DNA from: an uncultured Gemmatimonadales bacterium
Lineage (GTDB): Bacteria > Gemmatimonadota > Gemmatimonadetes > Longimicrobiales > RSA9
Length of the DNA: 64,000 nt
NCBI GenBank assembly: GCA_963798085.1
Contig: CAWCRS010000007.1
Span: forward strand, 896,001-960,000
Direction: 5' to 3'
Part shown: positions 24,136-36,896 of the stretch, piece after piece
Layout: each line of letters begins with the position of its first letter
Position numbering within the stretch: position 1 is the stretch's first letter
Position numbers and translations under genes: made by a program
The notes under the pieces: generated by a model
What the model saw: the letters and a program-made list of their open reading frames with translations, nothing else
What the model was told of the DNA's origin: nothing
Database searches by the model: none

Positions 24136-25189
<1,054 letters not shown>

Positions 25190-25193
<4 letters not shown>

Positions 25194-26457: not shown

Positions 26458-26872
26458 GCATTCGCCTGCCCGGCGCGGCAGCGGGCGGCCCGTCGCCGGC
26501 GCGGCCCTCAATGCGCAGCAGATTGCTGCGCAGCTGCCAGTAGAGATGATCGCCCGGCCGCAGCGTCAAGGTCTGCAATGTGACCGCGGCCCGCTGCGCG
26601 TTGGCCAGCAGCGAATAGCTGCCGCGGAACTGCGACTGCCGGAACTGCAGCTGGCGTGTGCGCGCCGGCGGCACATCGCCCAGCAGCACGCGCCGGCCAT
26701 CTCCCACAATGTGCACGACAACGGCGGACGCCGGTACCAGGTCATTGCGTACTTCGATCAACACCCAGTCCGCACTGCGGCGCGTGGCGTGTCCAGAGGC
26801 ACAGCCGGCGCACAGCGCTGCGCACAGGATCACACCGACCGGGTACCGGCGCCGCCTGATGACCTGAACCAT
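26444..26872 (-). CDS. Hypothetical lipoprotein
   Basis: Lipobox CAGC-AS, IEVRND...LLGDVPP; start overlaps the SusD stop. Confidence 0.65.
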   Translation of the reverse strand: MVQVIRRRRYPVGVILCAALCAGCASGHATRRSADWVLIEVRNDLVPASAVVVHIVGDGRRVLLGDVPPARTRQLQFRQSQFRGSYSLLANAQRAAVTLQTLTLRPGDHLYWQLRSNLLRIEGRAGDGPPAAAPGRRMHVAG

Positions 26873-28273
26873 CAGCTGCTGGCGCAGGGCTGCGGGTCAT
26901 TGCGGTTGCGCAGCGGCTGATCCGCAGGCTCGGGCACGTTCGGATTGGTCTGCCGCTCGCGCTCGCCGTAGATCAGTCGCCCGGGTATGGCCTTGCCCTG
27001 CCAGGTCGTGAGCGCCGGCATGCAGGTGCGCTTGTAATCGTTCCACACCTCTTCATTGAGGAACAGCGCGATGTACTTCTGCGTCATGATCTCCTGCATC
27101 AGTGCGGCGCCGCTCAGCGCAGCCGGATGATTCAGGGTTACGCCGTTGGCCTGCTCCTGACAGCGGATGCCGGCGTTCAACTCTGTGTTAGCCGTGCCCT
27201 CGTCCCCCATGCGGTAGGCCGCTTCCGCCGCAATGAACGCGTTCTCCGCACAGGTGACCATGGGCGTGGCCCACGTGGGTGAACCCGTGACCGCGGGATT
27301 CAGCAGGGACGCATCATTCAGGTTCTGGCCGGGTGCTGAGCCCACGTAGGCGCCCTCCGCATCGCGCGAGTAGTACATGCCCAGACGCGGATCGCTGCGC
27401 GACTGGAGCAGGCCGATCATGAAGTTGCCCGCTGCCATGTAGCCGGAGCGGTCGTTCATGAACTGGTACCAGAATGTTGGTCTCCGTCTGCGACGTGCCG
27501 TGCACGGTGTGCCAGTTGCCCGCAGGCGAGGTAATGCCCAGGCCTGTTTCCGCCAGCGCCTTCTGCAGGCAGTTGCCGCCGCACGCCGTCTGCGCCTCCG
27601 GCATGCTCGCATCCTGCGCCTCCACCCAGTGCATGTAGAACCGGGCCTTGAGCGTATGCGCCACCGCGATCCAGGGCGCGGCATCGCCGCCGAACACGAG
27701 GTCCAGTGAACCGGGACTCCCCTGGCCCGTGGCCAGCTTCGTGATGGCGTCGTCCAGCAGCGACTGCACGGCGGCGTACACATCCTGCTGCGCATCCAGC
27801 TTCGGCGTCGCGATGGCCGGATCGACTGCCTCCGAATAGGGGATGTCGCCCCAGGTGCTCGCGGTCATGCCCACGAGGTACGCTTCGTAGACCTCGAGGA
27901 TACCGCGCAGCACCGGCGACTGCGCGCTGTCCGCCAGCGACTCCGCGCGCCTGAGATCGACCAGACCCCCACCATTGTAGCGGTTGGTCCACTCGGTGCT
28001 CACGTCCGCTTCCTTCACCACGTACGTGTCGAAGATGGAGAATTGGCGGTCCGTCCCCGCCATCTGCTGCAACCAGATCGCCGCCAGGCGACTGATGTTG
28101 TCTTCGGTGATGAAGAAGCTGTTCACCTGATCGGCGATGAACAGCTGGTTGAGCGATGCGTGCGCCACTTCGTTCGGATTCGAGTCCGTGGGACTCACAT
28201 AGTTGCAGCCGGCGGCAGTCACCAGCAGTGCTGCCAGCTGGGCGGCCGCGCGCGTCATTCGATTCGCTTGCAT
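26872..28273 (-). CDS. SusD/RagB family nutrient-binding outer-membrane lipoprotein, apparent +1 indel near 27473
   Basis: Lipobox AAGC, WGDIPYSEA, PKLDAQQDVY, DLVFGGD..WIAVAHTLKARFY, DPRL, IMTQKYIALF, EVWNDYKRT; follows SusC. Confidence 0.88.
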
Positions 28274-28287
28274 GTCAGCCTCCACCC

Positions 28288-31200
28288 TCACCGGTTGAGT
28301 GTCAGTGTGAGGACGAGCGAGCGGGTCTGCGGATTGTTGAAGTAGTCAATGCCGCGACCAATGCTCTGACCCGTGAGATTGCTCTCCGGATCGATGCCCG
28401 AGTAATTGCTCCACGTGTGCAGGTTGCGACCCGCCACCGTCACATCCATCGAGTTGAAGCCGATGCGCTGGACGACAGGCAGATCGAACGTGTACGCCAG
28501 AGAGATGTCGCGCAGCTTGACGTAGCTGGCGTCCTCCACGAACTGCGAAGCAGGGCCGGTGAAGCCGCTGCCGATATTCGACGTGAACCAGTCCTCGTTG
28601 AACGCCACCTGCTTGCCCGCACCCGGACCGGCTACACTCTGACCCGAGTACGCGGCGTACGTCTCGGTCACACCCGCGCCATGGTAGGGCAGCGTGGATG
28701 CGTGCGTGCCGAAATAGGTGAGCGCGCCCTTCGTGCCGTTCCACATGTCCATGCCGTGCGCCACATCCACCAGGCCGGAAAGCGTGAGCTTGCCGAACAG
28801 GGTGATGGTGTTGCGCAGACTGGCGGTCCACTGCGGATTGGGATCGCCGATCACCCGCGCCTGCGGATCCAGCTGCGGATAGCCATCGGCACCCACGTAG
28901 ATCGTGCCCGGCGAGGCAGTGGCGGTGCCGTCGATCGCCTGGCCCGTGTTCTGGTCCACACTGCCGCGGCCGTAGCGGATGAAGTCACTGCCGAACAGCA
29001 CGCCGAAAGGATGACAGCCTGTCTGCGGATCCGGCGCCACCAGCTCCGCGGCCGGATCCGTGAACCCGTTCAGGAACAGGTTCTCCGCCCCAGCAATATC
29101 GGTGACGCAGCTGCGCTCGCGTGTCCACTGCGCCGAGATGTTCCACGCGAGATTCGGCGAACGCACCGCATCGACATCGAGCTCCGTCTCCAGCCCGTGG
29201 TTCTTCCAGGCCGCAGCGTTCTGGTACTCGGAGAAGTAGCCCGTACTGGAGGGCACCGGCACCTGCAGGATCGCGTCCGTCGTATTGCGGTCGTAGTACG
29301 TGACGGAAACGCCGATGCGCTGGTCGAACAACCCGAGATCAGCGCCCGCTTCCCACTCCCGCTTCCGCTCCGGCTTGATCTGGTCGTTGCCCAGCGTAGG
29401 ATCCGTGAAGACGCCCTCCTTGCCCTGATACAGGCTGTACAGGCCGTTCGTCACCCAGCCATCCACGAACGAGCCGGTATTGAAGGCGGTCACATTGGAG
29501 AAGACCGGCGGCTGACGGCCGCTCACGCCCCAGGAGGCGCGCAGCTTGCCGAAGCTGAGACCGGGAATGTGCTCCAGCGCATGCAGGCGAGTGAAGGTCC
29601 ACGCCAGACCGACGCCCGGATAGAAGAAACGCCGCTGTGTACCGTTGCCGAACACGGATGAGCCGTCCCAGCGCGCCGTGCCGTCCAGCGTGAGCTGATC
29701 GCCCAGCGTAAGCTCGCCGGTGCCGAAGTAGCCGTCCGTGCGCACCCTGGAACGGAATTCGTTCCCGGTATTCGTAACACTGAAGTTAGTCTCGTCCGTG
29801 CCCTGCAGCACGGTCGTGCCGTTGACGCCGTTGCGGCGCAGATTCGTCTCGTTCAGGTTCTGACCCACCGTGAGGCTGCCCACCACGCCATTCATCACGT
29901 TGCCCGTGGCCGTGGCCGAGAGATCGCTGTCGAAGACGTTCTGGATGATGGTGTTGCGGCCAATGGCGCCGGACAGGTACGCATCCGATCCCTTGGGGAA
30001 CAGCTCCACACGGTCGTCGCTCGAGTAGTCGTTGCCGATGACATAGTTGAGCTTGAGCCAGCTCAGCGGCACGTACTCCAGCGCGATGTTGCCGAACGTG
30101 CGACCCACCTTCGATGTGGCCGGCTCCTGGAACGCCACCCAGAACGGATTGTCGTAACCGTGACCCTGCGTGAGCGACGTGGGGTCGGGATTGCGATAGG
30201 TGCGCTGGATGCCCGTCTGCGGATCGAGGTACGGCAGGTTGTTGAAGTCGGGCGGCGTGCGCAGCGCACCCAGCTGGATGCCGCTGATGTTGGAGCCCTG
30301 CTGCACGAACGTGCCGTCACTGCCCGTGTACGCGAAGTTGCCCGTGATCTGCAGATCATCGAACAGGAAATGCGAGGCCTTGAGCCGAACCGTCGTGCGG
30401 TCGTAGCCCTGCGGTCCCTTGATCACGCCGTTCATGCCCAGCCGGCTGCCCGACAGGTAGTACGTCGTGCGCTCGCTGCCGCCACTCATGCTGAGGTTGG
30501 TGTTCCACTGCGAGCCCGTCTGGTAGATCTCGTTGGCGTGATCGAACGTCTGGGTCCCCGTGCCCAGCTGCGGGCCCCAGGAAAAGCTGTTGCCCGACTT
30601 GAACACGCCCTCGTCGCCCTGGCCGAATGCACGCTGCAAAGGCACCGTGCTCGTCACGTCCGTCCAGCCGGCCGTGGTCGTCAGTGAGGCCCGCGTGGCG
30701 CCCGGCCTGCCCGATTTCGTGGTGATCAGAACTACGCCGTTCGCAGCGCGCGAGCCATAGATGGCCGTGGCCGCCGCGCCCTTCAGGATTTCCACCGACT
30801 CGATGTCGTTCGGATTCAGGTCGGCGGCACGGTTGGTGACTACCGTGCCCGCCGTCGCGCCGCCATTGCCGTTGTTGTCCGGCGCGTCCTGCAGGTCGGT
30901 GTTGATGCTGGAGTTCGTGATGGGTGTGCCATCCACCACGATGAGCGGCTGCGTGCCGCCCGTGATCGAGGCGGCGCCGCGGATACGGATGTACGAGCCC
31001 GCACCCGGATCACCGGCCGAGCTCGTGACCTCGACACCCGGCGCCTTGCCCGCCAGCGCCTGCACGACATTCTGCTCCTGGCTGCGCTGAATGTCTTCCG
31101 AGCGCACCGTGCTCACCGCGGATGCCAGCCGCTCGCGCGTGGTCGCCGTGCCCTGACCCGTCGCCACGATCTCACTCAGATGCAGCGGTTCCACCGCGAG

Positions 31201-32092: not shown

Positions 32093-32154
32093 TTGTATCA
32101 TCGCCCTTGACACAAAAAGGGCCTGTCTTTATTGTGTCAGTTGGCTCGATACAA
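32093..32154. promoter_or_regulatory. Two tandem palindromic operators (YtrA/GntR-like)
   Basis: TTGTATCA-N7-TGACACAA at 32093-32115 and TTGTGTCA-N7-CGATACAA at 32132-32154, an AT-rich island in GC-rich DNA directly before a GntR gene. Confidence 0.75.
32107..32135 (+). promoter_or_regulatory. Sigma70-type promoter
   Basis: TTGACA (32107-32112), 17-bp spacer, TATTGT (32130-32135); AAGGAG RBS and GTG start follow. Confidence 0.75.
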
Positions 32155-32163
32155 GGAGACAAC

Positions 32164-33090
32164 GTGAAGGCCTACAACTTCACCGATACCGTGCGGCGCG
32201 CGCTCGCCCTCGCCCGCGAAGAGTCCAGCAAGCTGCAGCACGACTTTGTCGGCACGGAGCACGTGCTGCTCGGACTCCTGGACCTGGGCACTGACCCGGC
32301 CATCCTGATCCTGGAACAGTGCGGCGGAAATCCGGCAGGAATCCGGGTCCAGGTGCTGGAATCGATCCGGAAAGGAAGGAGCACCATCGCATTGGCCGAG
32401 CTGCCCTACACGTCTCGCGCAAAGCGAGCGCTGGAATTCACAATGGAAGCTGCGGCAGAGCTGCGCGACGCGTATGTGGGTACGGAGCATCTGCTGCTCG
32501 GTCTGATCCGGGAAGAGAAGGGAGTCGCCGCGCAGGTGCTCGCGCATCAGGGCGTCACTGCGCAGGCCGTGCTCGACCGCATCAGGAAACGTCACCGGGC
32601 GGAGGCGGCCGCGGCGAGTGAGGGCACGGCCGAAGTTGCGGTCCAGGGCACACCAGTAGCGCGTGCAGCCGCGGACAATGTGTGGTTCCTCGAGATCGAC
32701 ACCACATCCGGCGGCGCCATCTACGAACAGATCATTGCGCGCATCGAGGAAGCCGTGGCCACGGGGCGGCTGCAGCCCGGTGAGCGTCTGCCGCCCGTGC
32801 GCGATCTCGCCGCGGAGCTGGGTGTCGCGCCGGGCACCGTGGCGCGTGCCTATACCGCACTGGAGAAGCGCAGTGTGCTGGAGACCGACGGCGCGCGTGG
32901 CACCCGTGTGGCGGAGCGCACGGCACCGGCCCAGGCGGGTGTGCATCAGAGCCGGCTGGCGGAACTAATGCGCCCCGTGGTGGTGGCCGGCTTTCACCTC
33001 GGCGCCGCCGCTACCCAGCTGCGTGCCGCGCTGGAGCAGGCCATGCGCGACATCTTCCGCCGGGAAGGCGACGACGCGGACAAACAGTGA
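32164..33090 (+). CDS. Clp N-terminal repeat domain fused to a GntR (YtrA-like) winged-helix transcriptional regulator
   Basis: Two Clp_N repeats (FTDTVRRALALAREE...VGTEHVLLGLL; YTSRAKRALE...YVGTEHLLLGLIRE), a linker, then IYEQIIARIEEAVATGRLQPGERLPPVRDLAAELGVAPGTVARAY and a short helical C-terminus; no AAA+ domain. Confidence 0.88.
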   Translation: MKAYNFTDTVRRALALAREESSKLQHDFVGTEHVLLGLLDLGTDPAILILEQCGGNPAGIRVQVLESIRKGRSTIALAELPYTSRAKRALEFTMEAAAELRDAYVGTEHLLLGLIREEKGVAAQVLAHQGVTAQAVLDRIRKRHRAEAAAASEGTAEVAVQGTPVARAAADNVWFLEIDTTSGGAIYEQIIARIEEAVATGRLQPGERLPPVRDLAAELGVAPGTVARAYTALEKRSVLETDGARGTRVAERTAPAQAGVHQSRLAELMRPVVVAGFHLGAAATQLRAALEQAMRDIFRREGDDADKQ

Positions 33091-33091
33091 G

Positions 33092-33964
33092 TTATCCACC
33101 GCCCAGGCGCTGCAGCGTCTGCTGCACCCGCCGGTTGTTGGGCTGTATCTCGAGCGTCTTCCTGTAGTAGTCCACCGCCTTCGCCGTATCGCCCCTGGCG
33201 AGGTATGTATCGCCCAGCGACATGGTCACGGTGCCTTCCTGCGGATAGAACTCGTAGTCCAGCTCCAGCATGCGGATCGCTTCAGCCTGTTTGCCGTCTA
33301 CGCTGAGCGAGCGGCCCAGGTCGATCAGTGGGAGCGGACTGAAGTCGAACACGTCGCGTCCATAGTACTGCTGCCGCAGTGTGCGATACTTCGCCACGGC
33401 CGAGTCCATGCCCTGTTCCGCGATGACGCCGCTCAGCACGGCCTGCACGGTCTGCGGCCGGTTCTGTCCGTGATGACAGGTCTGGCACGACACGCTGACA
33501 GGATGCTCCGGGCGCTCCGGCAGGTCGGGCAGGATGGTGCCGTTGATCTGCTGCACCATCTTCAGCATGAAGCGCGCGCGCTTCTTCTCCACCTTGTCGT
33601 CGGACTTGTAGTCCATGCGGTTGCCGCCGAAGCCGCCTCGTCCACGCCCGCCGCCGCCTGCGCGCCCGGCGGTGTCCGGCGGCGGTGGCGCAGCGTTGCC
33701 GGCGGCGCGCACGTGGCAGTACTCGCAGCGCACACCGAGCGCGCCGGTGAAGCCGCGCATCACGGTTTCCAGGCTGTCGCGCGAGATGTCCTTGGGCAGG
33801 ACCTGAAGGTTCTCGAACTTGTCGGGCACGCCACCCTGTGCCTGCAGTGTGCCGCGTGCCAGCAGTGAACAGGTCAGCGCCACGCCCGCGACCGTGCCGC
33901 CACGCAGGACGGCGCCGGACCACACTAACAGCCAGTTCGAGATTCCGCTGCCACTCTGCCGCAT
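33092..33964 (-). CDS. Diheme c-type cytochrome (reaction-centre cytochrome c-like family) with C-terminal TPR
   Basis: ENLQVLPKD, CEYCH, KKRARFMLKMVQQIN, CQTCH; TPR SLGDTYLARGDTAKAVDYYRKTLEIQPNN; true start may lie downstream. Confidence 0.8.
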   Translation of the reverse strand: MRQSGSGISNWLLVWSGAVLRGGTVAGVALTCSLLARGTLQAQGGVPDKFENLQVLPKDISRDSLETVMRGFTGALGVRCEYCHVRAAGNAAPPPPDTAGRAGGGGRGRGGFGGNRMDYKSDDKVEKKRARFMLKMVQQINGTILPDLPERPEHPVSVSCQTCHHGQNRPQTVQAVLSGVIAEQGMDSAVAKYRTLRQQYYGRDVFDFSPLPLIDLGRSLSVDGKQAEAIRMLELDYEFYPQEGTVTMSLGDTYLARGDTAKAVDYYRKTLEIQPNNRRVQQTLQRLGGG

Positions 33965-34155: not shown

Positions 34156-36710
34156 TCACCACTGGAAAGGCCAGCCCAGCCAGAACATGGGTGGTTCGCC
34201 AATGGGCGCGCCGGGCGGTGCCACCTGTGTGGCAGCAGGGGCGTACGGTGTTCCGGGCCGCGCCAGGAAACGCTGGATGTCGCGGCTCACGAGCGCGAAG
34301 TGCGCCGCGTTCGGGTCGTCCGCGCGGGCCACCGCGTTGCCCAGGTCTGCCGCCTTGCGCTGCAGCCGCAGTGTAGCCACCGCCCGCACCTGTGGCATGT
34401 CGGCCGTGCTCGCGAGGCGCATCAGCTCATCGATCGCGACGCGCTGCACGGCACGCGCGATCTCGGCCTCGTACGGCGAGGCGGGTGTCGCGTTGAACGT
34501 GGCCGTGAACACCTGGTCGATTACTTCCTCGAGGCCTGGAATGGATGGGTCGAGCGCGTGCTGCTCGACAATGCGGGCCGCGCGGTCCGGCTGGAAAATG
34601 TCGGAGAGCACGAGCTGCGCGACCGTGACCGCAGGCGAGATGGCATCGAAGCCATCGCCGGTGTACCGCGGAAACATCTCGCGATGCGCGCCGTAGCCCG
34701 GCGGTCGTGGTGGAATCAGCCCCAGCACGCTGGTGGGCAGAGCCAGCGCCGAAGGCTGCAGCGTCGCCATGAGTGCGGTGAGCGCCGCCTGCTGCTCGCT
34801 GCCGGATGCAGGGCGCACGGGCTCGCGTCCGTCGCCGCGCATCGCGTAGATGTAGTGCAGCCCGCCCATCGTGGACGCGGCCGCGTCGATCTGGTAGCGG
34901 TGATACAGGTAGAGTGGCACCAGCGCTTCCTCGATCGTGGCCATGGGCGCGCCGCGCTTGATCGCGTTTTCGCCGAAGCGCGCCAGTGCATTGCGCCGGA
35001 TGTCCATCATGCGGTACAGCTCGGCCGCTGCATCCGTGCCGTTGGACCACTGGTCCACTCTGGGGTTGGCGGCCATATCCTGGTTGGTCAGGTAGCGGAT
35101 GTCGCGCTGCCATGCGTTGTCGAGTATGCGGTTCAGCGCGGCGGGCTCATTCGTGCCCTTCGGGAAGTCCTGATAACCCCAGGTTATGGAAACACTGTCC
35201 CACTCGCCGATGCCCGACTCGTAGACCTGGCTGTAGTCGAGCGTGCCATCGCTCTTCAGCGTCACCAGGGGCTGCGGGTAATCCATCACTGAGATGCGGC
35301 CCGCCTCGCTGTCGTAGTAGTTGTGGCCCAGCCCCAGCGTGTGCCCCACCTCGTGCGCGGCCAGCTGGCGGATGCGCGCCAGCGCCCACTGTGTCAGCTC
35401 CGGCGGTGTCTCGTCGCCATTCTTGTAAGGGGAGAGCAGGCTTTCCGCGATCAGGTAGTCCTGGCGCGCGCGCAGCGAGCCCAGCTCCACCACGCCTTTG
35501 ATGATCTCGCCTGTGCGCGGATCATCGACTGAGCCGCCGAAGCTCCAGCCGCGTGTCGAGCGATGCACCCAGTTGATCACGTTGTAGCGCGCATCCAGCG
35601 GGCTGATGCTGTCGGGTCGCAGCTCCACACGGAACGCGTTGCGGTAGCCGGCCGCTTCGAAAGCCTGGTTCCACCAGCGCGCGCCCTCCAGCAGCGCCGA
35701 GCGGATGGGCTCGGGCGCACCCGGATCGAGGTAGTAGATGATGGGCTTCACCGGATCGCTGACGCGTGCGCTCGGGTCCACCTTCTTCAGCCGGTGCCGG
35801 TTCGTGAAGCGCTTCGTCAGCGGTTCGCTGAGCGGCGAGGCGAAGTCGTCGTACGAATGTCGCCGAACCCCGAGCGCGGATCGAACGGGCGAGGCGTGTA
35901 GTTGCTGTCGGGCAGTTCAATGAAGGAGTGGTGCACCCGCAGGCTTGCCGCTTCCGGCGAGGCCGCGACATTGCCCACGCCCTCGAAGTACCCGCCGCCA
36001 CCGCCACCGCCGCCCCCCCCACCGCCACCGACATTGCCGGCCGCCGCGGGCTGGCGCACATAGGTGAGTTCCGCTTCTAACTCCGTGTTCCTGGGGAAGA
36101 CCTTCGTCATGGGCATGAAGATGCTGCTGCGGCTCGCCTCCAGGCGGTAGCTGCCGGGGCGCAGCCGCTGCGCCAGGTTGCCATCGTCGCGCAGCACGAA
36201 ATCGGTCATGTCCACGAGCACGCGGCCGCCACTCTCGGCTGCCACCGTGAAGCCCCACAGCACGGAGCGAGCGAAGGCGTCGCGCACCGCTCTGACTTCT
36301 GCGGGGTTCGTGCTGGTGGCGCGGAAGTCGTAGTTGGGCTGCACCATCAGCACCTTGGGCCCCACGCGCTGGAAGAACACAATGCGCGAACCCAGCAGTG
36401 CGCCGCGGTCCAGCCCGATGTCGTTGGAGCCCAGACCAGCCGCCAGTCCCGTGATGTAGAGCACCTCCGTGTCGAGGTGTGGGATCTCCATCCAGAGCTT
36501 GCCGGCGCTCTCCTCCCAGTAAAGCGGGAAGAAACCGGCGAGCTTCGTCATGCCCGCAGTTTTCGCCTCGATCGTAGGCGTGCGCTGGCGTGCCGCGAGC
36601 GGTTGCGCCCCCGGCCATGCGACAGCGGCGAGGACGAGTGCGGTGAGAAGGGGGCGGCGTCGTCGCCAGAAACCGGCGCCGTGGAGAGCACGAAGCGCAT
36701 GCGCGCGCAT
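34156..36710 (-). CDS. Zinc-dependent metalloprotease (DUF5117/DUF4953, EcxA-like), apparent -1 indel near 35856
   Basis: Signal peptide, VHHSFIELP, PIIYYLD, WWNQAFEAAG, DPRTGEIIKG, metzincin HEVGHTLGLGHN, Met-turn SVMDY. Confidence 0.88.
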
Positions 36711-36896
36711 GACACACCTCCGAGGATGTTCGGGTAGCGATCCGGCGCAGTGTACGCACGCCCGCCTGACCCGGCCAGCCGGACCGGGATCAGGCGCCGT
36801 TTCCGAACGTGACTCGCTCGGAACGAGGGCCGTCACGCACGTTGCGGATGCGTTTTCCGGCCGTTTCTGTGGCGGGTCGGCCGATTTTGTCCGGCG

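Follow-up and report, generated by a model that had tools for sequence, protein, structure and literature searches.

A ClpC N-domain joined to a GntR regulator in Gemmatimonadota, a candidate autoregulatory sensor of ClpC ligands

Results

An ATPase-less ClpC N-domain joined to a winged helix

The window analysed, a 64,000-nucleotide stretch of contig CAWCRS010000007.1 from an uncultured Gemmatimonadales bacterium, carries on its forward strand an open reading frame at 32164–33090 that starts with GTG behind a ribosome-binding site, AGGAGA (32154–32159), and encodes 308 amino acids. Pfam searches of this protein found two Clp_N stretches (E 2.4e-26), a GntR domain at residues 187–249 (E 2.1e-15) and no AAA family, and none of 23 matching NCBIfam models reached its cut-off. 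The two-repeat ClpC N-terminal domain was placed at 32164–32598 (approximately residues 1–145) by Pfam, by sequence and fold matches in the PDB and by AlphaFold. It is followed by a low-confidence linker at 32599–32679 (approximately residues 146–172), which is gappy in the family alignment and widely variable in length, and by a YtrA-type GntR part at 32680–33090, made up of the winged helix (residues 187–249) and C-terminal helices at residues 261–278 and 283–306. In sequence searches of solved structures, the N-terminal half matched ClpC N-domains and the C-terminal half matched Lmo2241 best (4ham, residues 177–297, E 2.8e-14); the ClpC2 chains 8ad9, 8b9o and 9p2p matched the Clp part only. 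The initial annotation had described a complete two-repeat Clp N-domain without an AAA+ module and a YtrA-like winged helix, and both halves of that description are borne out, the first by Pfam and the second by Pfam, the Lmo2241 match and the structural model.

An AlphaFold model built from a 61-row alignment (mean pLDDT 89.9, pTM 0.57) shows the Clp N-domain, a loose linker, the winged helix and two C-terminal helices, with block means of 83–99 for the N-domain and values below 50 for linker residues 161–171. At this pTM the two domains appear in the model without a fixed mutual arrangement. The best fold matches were again ClpC N-domains, and those of B. subtilis, S. aureus and mycobacterial ClpC1 superpose with an rmsd of ~1–2.5 Å over ~140 residues at 40–44% identity. 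Compared with the N-domain of the host's ClpC, the sequence is 58% identical. Unlike ClpC, the fusion has neither an AAA+ nor a middle domain.

The stop codon ends at 33090 and the convergent open reading frame on the reverse strand (33092–33964, cytochrome c-like with TPR) ends at 33092, leaving the single base pair between them that had been noted at first reading; this neighbour closes the transcription unit and is not a conserved partner. No ABC gene was found downstream of the fusion, also as originally described. Elsewhere in the window, a DUF5117/5118 and Met-zincin (DUF4953) gene on the reverse strand (34156–36836) is spread over two open reading frames (35817–36836 and 34156–35781), possibly through a frameshift or sequencing error. 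An ABC ATPase gene (24136–25193, forward strand) and a gene that follows a TonB-dependent receptor (26872–28291, reverse strand) are apparently broken across frames as well, which suggests indel errors in the assembly.

Two palindromes over the promoter

A sigma70-type promoter is predicted at 32107–32135, with a −35 box TTGACA (32107–32112), a 17-nt spacer and a −10 box TATTGT (32130–32135) that together give 10 of 12 consensus matches; the promoter search gave 2 sites, against a mean of 0.1 in shuffled sequence. Over the promoter lie two 23-bp palindromes. The right arm of operator 1 (32093–32115, of the type TTGTAyCA-N7-TGryACAA) contains the −35 box, and operator 2 (32132–32154), 39 bp further on, overlaps the −10 box and the predicted transcription start. 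The region 32093–32154, proposed in the initial annotation for binding assays, corresponds exactly to these two palindromes, which were identified by conservation and at which binding is predicted. When the 6.2-Mb host genome was scanned with a position weight matrix (PWM) built without this locus, operator 1 was the top match (30.7 bits) and operator 2 the second (25.9 bits); the next scored 17.9 bits, and only 7 sites exceeded 13 bits.

The same arrangement recurs in relatives. At least one predicted site was found in 46 of 48 upstream regions, compared with a mean of 0.36 loci after shuffling, and two sites were found in 36 (by mismatch count) or 37 (by PWM), spaced 29–41 bp apart with a mode of 38; without the four fusion loci from unpublished genomes, 34 of 44 had two sites. 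TTGACA occupies the same place in the first site in 41 of the 48 loci. One of the two loci scored as site-less has a site, its start having been misplaced, and the other stands second in a pair of tandem genes. Divergent members of the family still carry the operators. No site above 17 bits was found in any of 50 mcsB/clpC loci, and among 22 stand-alone YtrA-like loci the 15-bit mark was exceeded in 2.

Members of the YtrA subfamily share with the fusion a winged helix followed by two short C-terminal helices, and a long palindrome, with GT/AC far from its centre, before their own gene (PMC4494728); their regulons are given there as mostly single sites and ABC operons. The fusion differs from them in its extra N-terminal Clp domain, its double sites and the lack of an ABC operon. 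An ABC-type Walker A motif was found downstream of 1 of 49 fusion loci versus 14 of 21 stand-alone YtrA-like loci, and no recurrent neighbour gene was seen among the loci listed, so the predicted regulon is the fusion gene itself. A wider regulon was not accepted, because the third site (C7:384164, 17.9 bits, near position 3165 of L192) is single, weak and probably due to chance; judged from translations, it lies in a polysaccharide-type cluster before a glycosyltransferase-like open reading frame. From the placement and conservation of the sites, it is very likely that the fusion represses its own gene, and the predicted output of the circuit would be the fusion protein itself, as in ClpC2.

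A family found in Gemmatimonadota

Searches for the Clp_N–GntR architecture, which had been suggested as a check, yielded some 200 proteins or more, a family that belongs to Gemmatimonadota wherever a taxon is given. Of the best 120 matches, 116 (one being the fusion itself) carry both domains at 46–57% identity, and all named taxa are Gemmatimonadota; these names, together with the host's ClpC, place the host in the same phylum. The ESM Atlas holds a Clp_N and GntR cluster of 196 members in which Gemmatimonadota are commonest. In a genome-by-genome search within Gemmatimonadota, with overlapping samples, the fusion was present in 41 of 301 genomes of the host's order, in 10 of 401 and 9 of 301 genomes of two families of another order, and in 8 of 301 genomes sampled across the phylum. 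No relatives were found in plasmids or in viral contigs, where close relatives were covered by the search, and a mobile origin was rejected on these grounds. Database names of members are GntR/YhcF regulators or Clp N-terminal domain proteins, and a literature search, with subscription journals mostly outside its coverage, found no published description. The family therefore appears to be undescribed, with a circuit apparently of the ClpC2 kind.

Of 51 loci fetched from separate genomes, 49 encode both domains in one open reading frame, and the remaining two are a locus truncated at the edge of its contig and one with no N-domain; in 3 of the 49 the N-domain scores just 13–27 bits. A chimeric assembly join, raised at the outset as a possible artefact, was rejected from these 49 loci and from the position of the gene inside a 1.9-Mb contig. 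One DNA run additionally yielded a contig of 301 bp that covers the promoter and the 5′ end and shows 1 difference, the domain join lying outside its coverage. The locus counts, the ClpC set and the trees include four fusion loci (L091, L094, L134 and L156) and two clpC loci (L167 and L181) from the unpublished genomes G157, G182, G901 and G856.

Within the family, conservation is highest in the GntR part, and the N-domain is far more variable. The N-domain is eroded and shortened in one subfamily (P0289, P0292, P0298, P0299 and L135) and doubled before the GntR part in P0244 and P0309, while L144 contains two tandem fusion genes. This variability, the eroded and doubled copies, and a PWM scan of the host genome that found no target gene other than the fusion itself would all suit a protein with no sensor, in which the N-domain is an oligomerisation module for cooperative two-site binding, or a decaying passenger, on a self-limiting repressor without a switch. 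Such a reading is regarded as improbable. Without induction there would be little sense in a doubly repressed, near-consensus promoter whose sole predicted product is the repressor, and among longer proteins the GntR clade is almost always fused: when these were searched with the GntR half alone, 396 matches were obtained at E ≤ 1e-25 and Clp_N was present in 116 of the 120 matches listed.

Clp N-domains without an ATPase also occur in other settings. Stand-alone divergent Clp_N genes adjoin the fusion downstream in L151, L158 and L159, where they lack the residues that bind phosphoarginine (pArg), and upstream in L141. Many further proteins consist of 2–6 tandem Clp N-domains (P0122–P0270), some of which could be assembly artefacts; among 52 tandem proteins scanned, there were single cases with TIR_2, NUDIX, bifunctional nuclease and 23S rRNA-intervening-sequence domains. 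An ESM Atlas cluster joining Clp_N to an ArsR-type HTH_20/HTH_5 domain (88 members, mostly Cyanobacteriota, score 0.77) is a lead only, and is a possible third independent regulator with a ClpC N-domain.

Probable repeated derivation of the N-domain from ClpC

Fusion N-domains were compared with ordinary Gemmatimonadota ClpC loci obtained by scanning genome contigs. Closer similarity to Gemmatimonadota ClpC than to ClpC of other phyla was found for 201 of 205, and the fusion N-domains group with Gemmatimonadota ClpC at a support of 100/99 in a tree to which ClpC2 sequences did not belong. Judged by sequence relationships, the N-domain is derived from the phylum's own ClpC. At ten order-diagnostic ClpC positions, 24 of 27 fusions of the host's order lean towards the ClpC type of that order, with 3 ties and none opposite; of those from the other order, 9 of 19 lean towards their own type and 6 towards the other, with 4 ties.

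The origin tree was built from the genome-derived rows with at least 55% identity to ClpC (27 of 46). Five of these fusions are sister to Gemmatimonadales ClpC (100/99), none of them from the unpublished genomes, and a single origin of the N-domains was rejected (p-AU 0.0032; LG+G4, 137 columns, long branches present). An earlier tree (p-AU 0.002) had included chimera suspects and was not relied on. In a quick tree with 14 stand-alone YtrA-like proteins, the GntR parts of the fusions come together as one clade (SH-aLRT 92). With one origin of the N-domain rejected and the GntR parts forming one group, ClpC donated the N-domain at least two times, or the domain was replaced once. Recent gene conversion from the host clpC was not supported, as the own clpC had a mean rank of 8.5 of 21 for shared synonymous codons over 21 genome pairs and ranked 10 of 21 for the gene at 32164–33090. 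P0102, in which the first repeat is nearly pure ClpC and the rest nearly identical to L090, was set aside as a likely assembly chimera.

Uneven retention of the phosphoarginine pockets

As in the initial annotation, we take T31, T81 and R83 of ClpC to lie in one of its pArg pockets, pArg2, and T105 in the other, pArg1. T7, R9 and E106 belong to pArg1 and E32 to pArg2 (PMC12583610), the presence of dual pArg sites is confirmed in PMC9604228, and pArg1 is described as the pocket that matters most when pArg activates ClpC of S. aureus (PMC12583610). The equivalents of E32, E106, T7, K85 and E89 are present in the fusion. Both GTEH motifs and YTSR are kept, and position 9 reads Thr (FTDT) where solved ClpC N-domains read FTDR, in agreement with the first reading of the sequence. 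The pArg2 face (T31/E32/T83/R85) is thus intact, whereas pArg1 keeps T7, T107 and E108 and has R9 replaced by Thr; the groove residues are Y82, K87 and E91. Thr at position 9 holds for this copy and not for the family, in which Arg is commonest there (63 of 116).

The initial annotation had suggested one intact and one altered pArg site, and this asymmetry was found to extend across the family. In Gemmatimonadota ClpC, all eight pArg residues are kept in 45–46 of 46 sequences. Among fusions with at least 75% identity to ClpC, pArg1 is intact in 33 and pArg2 in 35 of 36; the corresponding figures are 39 and 74 of 79 at 60–75% identity, 3 and 34 of 41 at 50–60%, 1 and 7 of 32 at 40–50%, and 0 and 1 of 13 below 40%, so that pArg2 is intact in 8 of the 45 members below 50%. 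These counts, taken over 201 fusion rows that were not de-duplicated and from which four chimera suspects (P0102 and the high-identity metagenome proteins P0037, P0005 and P0161) had been dropped, are not independent, because family members are related. In contrast, a control set of 274 Clp_N domains lacking GntR, drawn from 108 proteins, is free of this bias at 50–60% identity, with pArg1 intact in 35 and pArg2 in 30 of 77. The pocket pattern holds for genome-derived fusion rows at 50–60% (2 and 11 of 14) and after the four unpublished fusion loci are removed (2 and 9 of 12).

Of the 41 fusions at 50–60% identity, 39, 40 and 38 retain Y/F82, K87 and E91 of the groove, respectively, versus 38, 58 and 52 of 77 controls. 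At 40–50% these residues are kept in 28, 27 and 20 of 32 fusions and are the longest-lasting ones; among the 35 members with the lowest scores, 17 have Pro in place of T31. That one pocket and the groove are selectively kept, in comparison with control domains, argues against a protein without a sensor, and the N-domain of the fusion probably does serve as a ligand sensor. In ClpC, pArg substrates bind by two signals, a pArg and an unfolded stretch, and the groove and K85 are where cyclic peptides bind (PMC12583610). The combination of pArg2 and a groove patch fits two-signal binding of pArg substrates. Arginine-phosphorylated proteins as the main ligand of this copy are about an even prospect. 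The loss here of pArg1, the pocket that counts most for S. aureus ClpC, speaks against them. Since divergent members lose both pockets and keep their operators, and some have an eroded N-domain, pArg sensing cannot hold family-wide.

The outlasting of pArg residues by the groove in divergent members, together with the binding of cyclic peptides there, could instead point to a decoy, that is, the same autorepression with an N-domain that mimics host ClpC and soaks up natural-product peptides, phage adaptor-like proteins or McsB. The patchy presence of the fusion, a fast-evolving N-domain captured at least two times from ClpC and once clearly host-matched, and the extra stand-alone Clp_N genes beside four loci are all in keeping with it. 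Phage proteins can hijack the ClpC N-domain. We know of no ClpC-targeting compound or phage protein for Gemmatimonadota, however, no relatives were found in plasmids or viral contigs (close relatives covered), and the drift from the host sequence (58% identity) would make the copy a poorer mimic. Residues F2, F80 and E89 are critical for CymA binding (PMC10030653), and an F80Y exchange weakens antibiotic binding ~10-fold (bioRxiv 10.64898/2026.06.30.735635); the aligned positions in the fusion are A3, Y82 and E91, and Tyr replaces F80 in the host ClpC too. Cyclomarin-type ligands, suggested for binding assays in the initial annotation, are consequently weaker candidates than it implied, with the Glu kept, F80 replaced by Tyr and F2 by Ala. 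We consider a decoy of this kind somewhat unlikely.

Host pathway

Both mcsB and clpC, for which a check of the host had been advised, are present. Clp_N occurs in three genes of the host, namely clpC, clpB and the fusion, and the host's clpC is preceded by a UVR-motif gene (mcsA-like) and mcsB, in the order mcsA–mcsB–clpC. This run of genes (L191:6522–14718; contig C7 of genome G000, approximately 1603500–1611700) leads straight into genes for POTRA/Omp85 (BamA-like), OmpH and LpxD proteins. Of the 59 other genomes that carry the fusion, 49 have mcsB (28 of the 31 of high quality), as do 150 of 151 genomes of the phylum, the unpublished genomes G057 and G097 being included in the tally. With mcsB in 150 of 151 genomes and the fusion patchy, co-occurrence does not discriminate between readings, and the pathway leaves the patchy spread unexplained. 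In Firmicutes, the activity of McsB is linked to transcription by CtsR, a heat-shock repressor connected with pArg that controls clpC and is a phosphorylation target itself; CtsR was not found in the host genome (90% complete), and the fusion, unlike CtsR, has no predicted site at the clpC operon.

Discussion

The closest known parallel is ClpC2, the single described ClpC-N-domain sensor-repressor found in the literature. ClpC2 represses its own gene via two palindromes over the −35 and −10 boxes, and has one pArg pocket intact; pArg-casein, CymA and rufomycin each release it, after which it serves as a sponge (bioRxiv 10.64898/2026.06.30.735635). The fusion resembles it as an ATPase-less ClpC N-domain homologue whose product is a presumed sponge, with dual palindromes, predicted here, over its own −35 and −10 boxes and one of two pArg pockets kept. 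The differences go beyond the reversed domain order, which together with a different DNA-binding family had been the contrast drawn in the initial annotation; its proposal of an independent ClpC2-like circuit stands for the layout and the autoregulation. ClpC2 has an N-terminal dimerisation domain and a C-terminal Clp-like domain, through which it is proposed to contact DNA, whereas the fusion has its Clp domain at the N-terminus and a true GntR winged helix as partner. The ClpC2 operator, CGTCAAC-n5-GTTGACG (PMC10030653), is unrelated to the 23-bp palindrome of the fusion. The ClpC2 pocket lies at the N-terminus of helix 1, which its numbering suggests to be pArg1, and the fusion family keeps pArg2; the CymA-binding F2 and F80 of ClpC2 are not kept. 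The fusion N-domain comes from Gemmatimonadota ClpC and not from actinobacterial ClpC1 or ClpC2, a separate origin, and the fusion's host has a recognisable McsB, whereas mycobacteria have no identified arginine kinase (bioRxiv 10.64898/2026.06.30.735635). By inference, the fusion works like ClpC2 without being a member of it.

The reading preferred here, to which a probability of roughly one half is assigned from sequence and model evidence, is a ClpC2-like autoregulatory sensor and sponge that would be released by arginine-phosphorylated proteins. Dimers of the YtrA-type GntR part would bind the two conserved palindromes over the −35 and −10 boxes and repress the gene. The N-domain copy would use its pArg2 pocket and the hydrophobic groove beside it, the residues of which are in place, to bind ClpC ligands; the likeliest of these are partly unfolded proteins that McsB has phosphorylated on arginine. 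Ligand binding would lower the occupancy of the two sites and, by analogy, would probably do so by disrupting contacts between N-domains that hold the two dimers together. Once the gene was de-repressed, the accumulating ATPase-less protein may hold ClpC clients until ClpCP clears them.

Rather than holding substrates, the induced N-domain might compete for ClpC resting-state contacts or for McsB and so alter protease activity. K85 and the pArg pockets are resting-state anchors in S. aureus ClpC (PMC12583610), and K87 is well kept here; R9 and T7, however, which decay in the family, make resting-state contacts to the middle domain (PMC12583610), and such tuning of ClpC is judged highly unlikely. 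A broader and tentative idea, rather unlikely as it stands, is that repressors repeatedly capture the host ClpC head as 'integrated decoys', the copy diversifying to sense ClpC-engaging agents, foreign hijackers included, and overproducing itself as a sponge. ClpC2 in Actinomycetota, the GntR fusion in Gemmatimonadota with at least two captures and possibly the cyanobacterial Clp_N–ArsR proteins would be its instances.

On the preferred sensor-and-sponge reading, the fusion family rebuilds the logic of ClpC2, with dual operators, one pocket and itself as output, from different parts. In mycobacteria, which have no identified arginine kinase, pArg and antibiotics are both candidates for the natural signal of ClpC2; as mcsB is nearly universal in Gemmatimonadota, the pArg question becomes testable there with the cognate kinase. 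Natural variants with two, one and no intact pockets offer a ready test series, and the GntR module with its defined 23-bp operator could serve as a genetic reporter for pArg load or for ligands of the ClpC N-domain.
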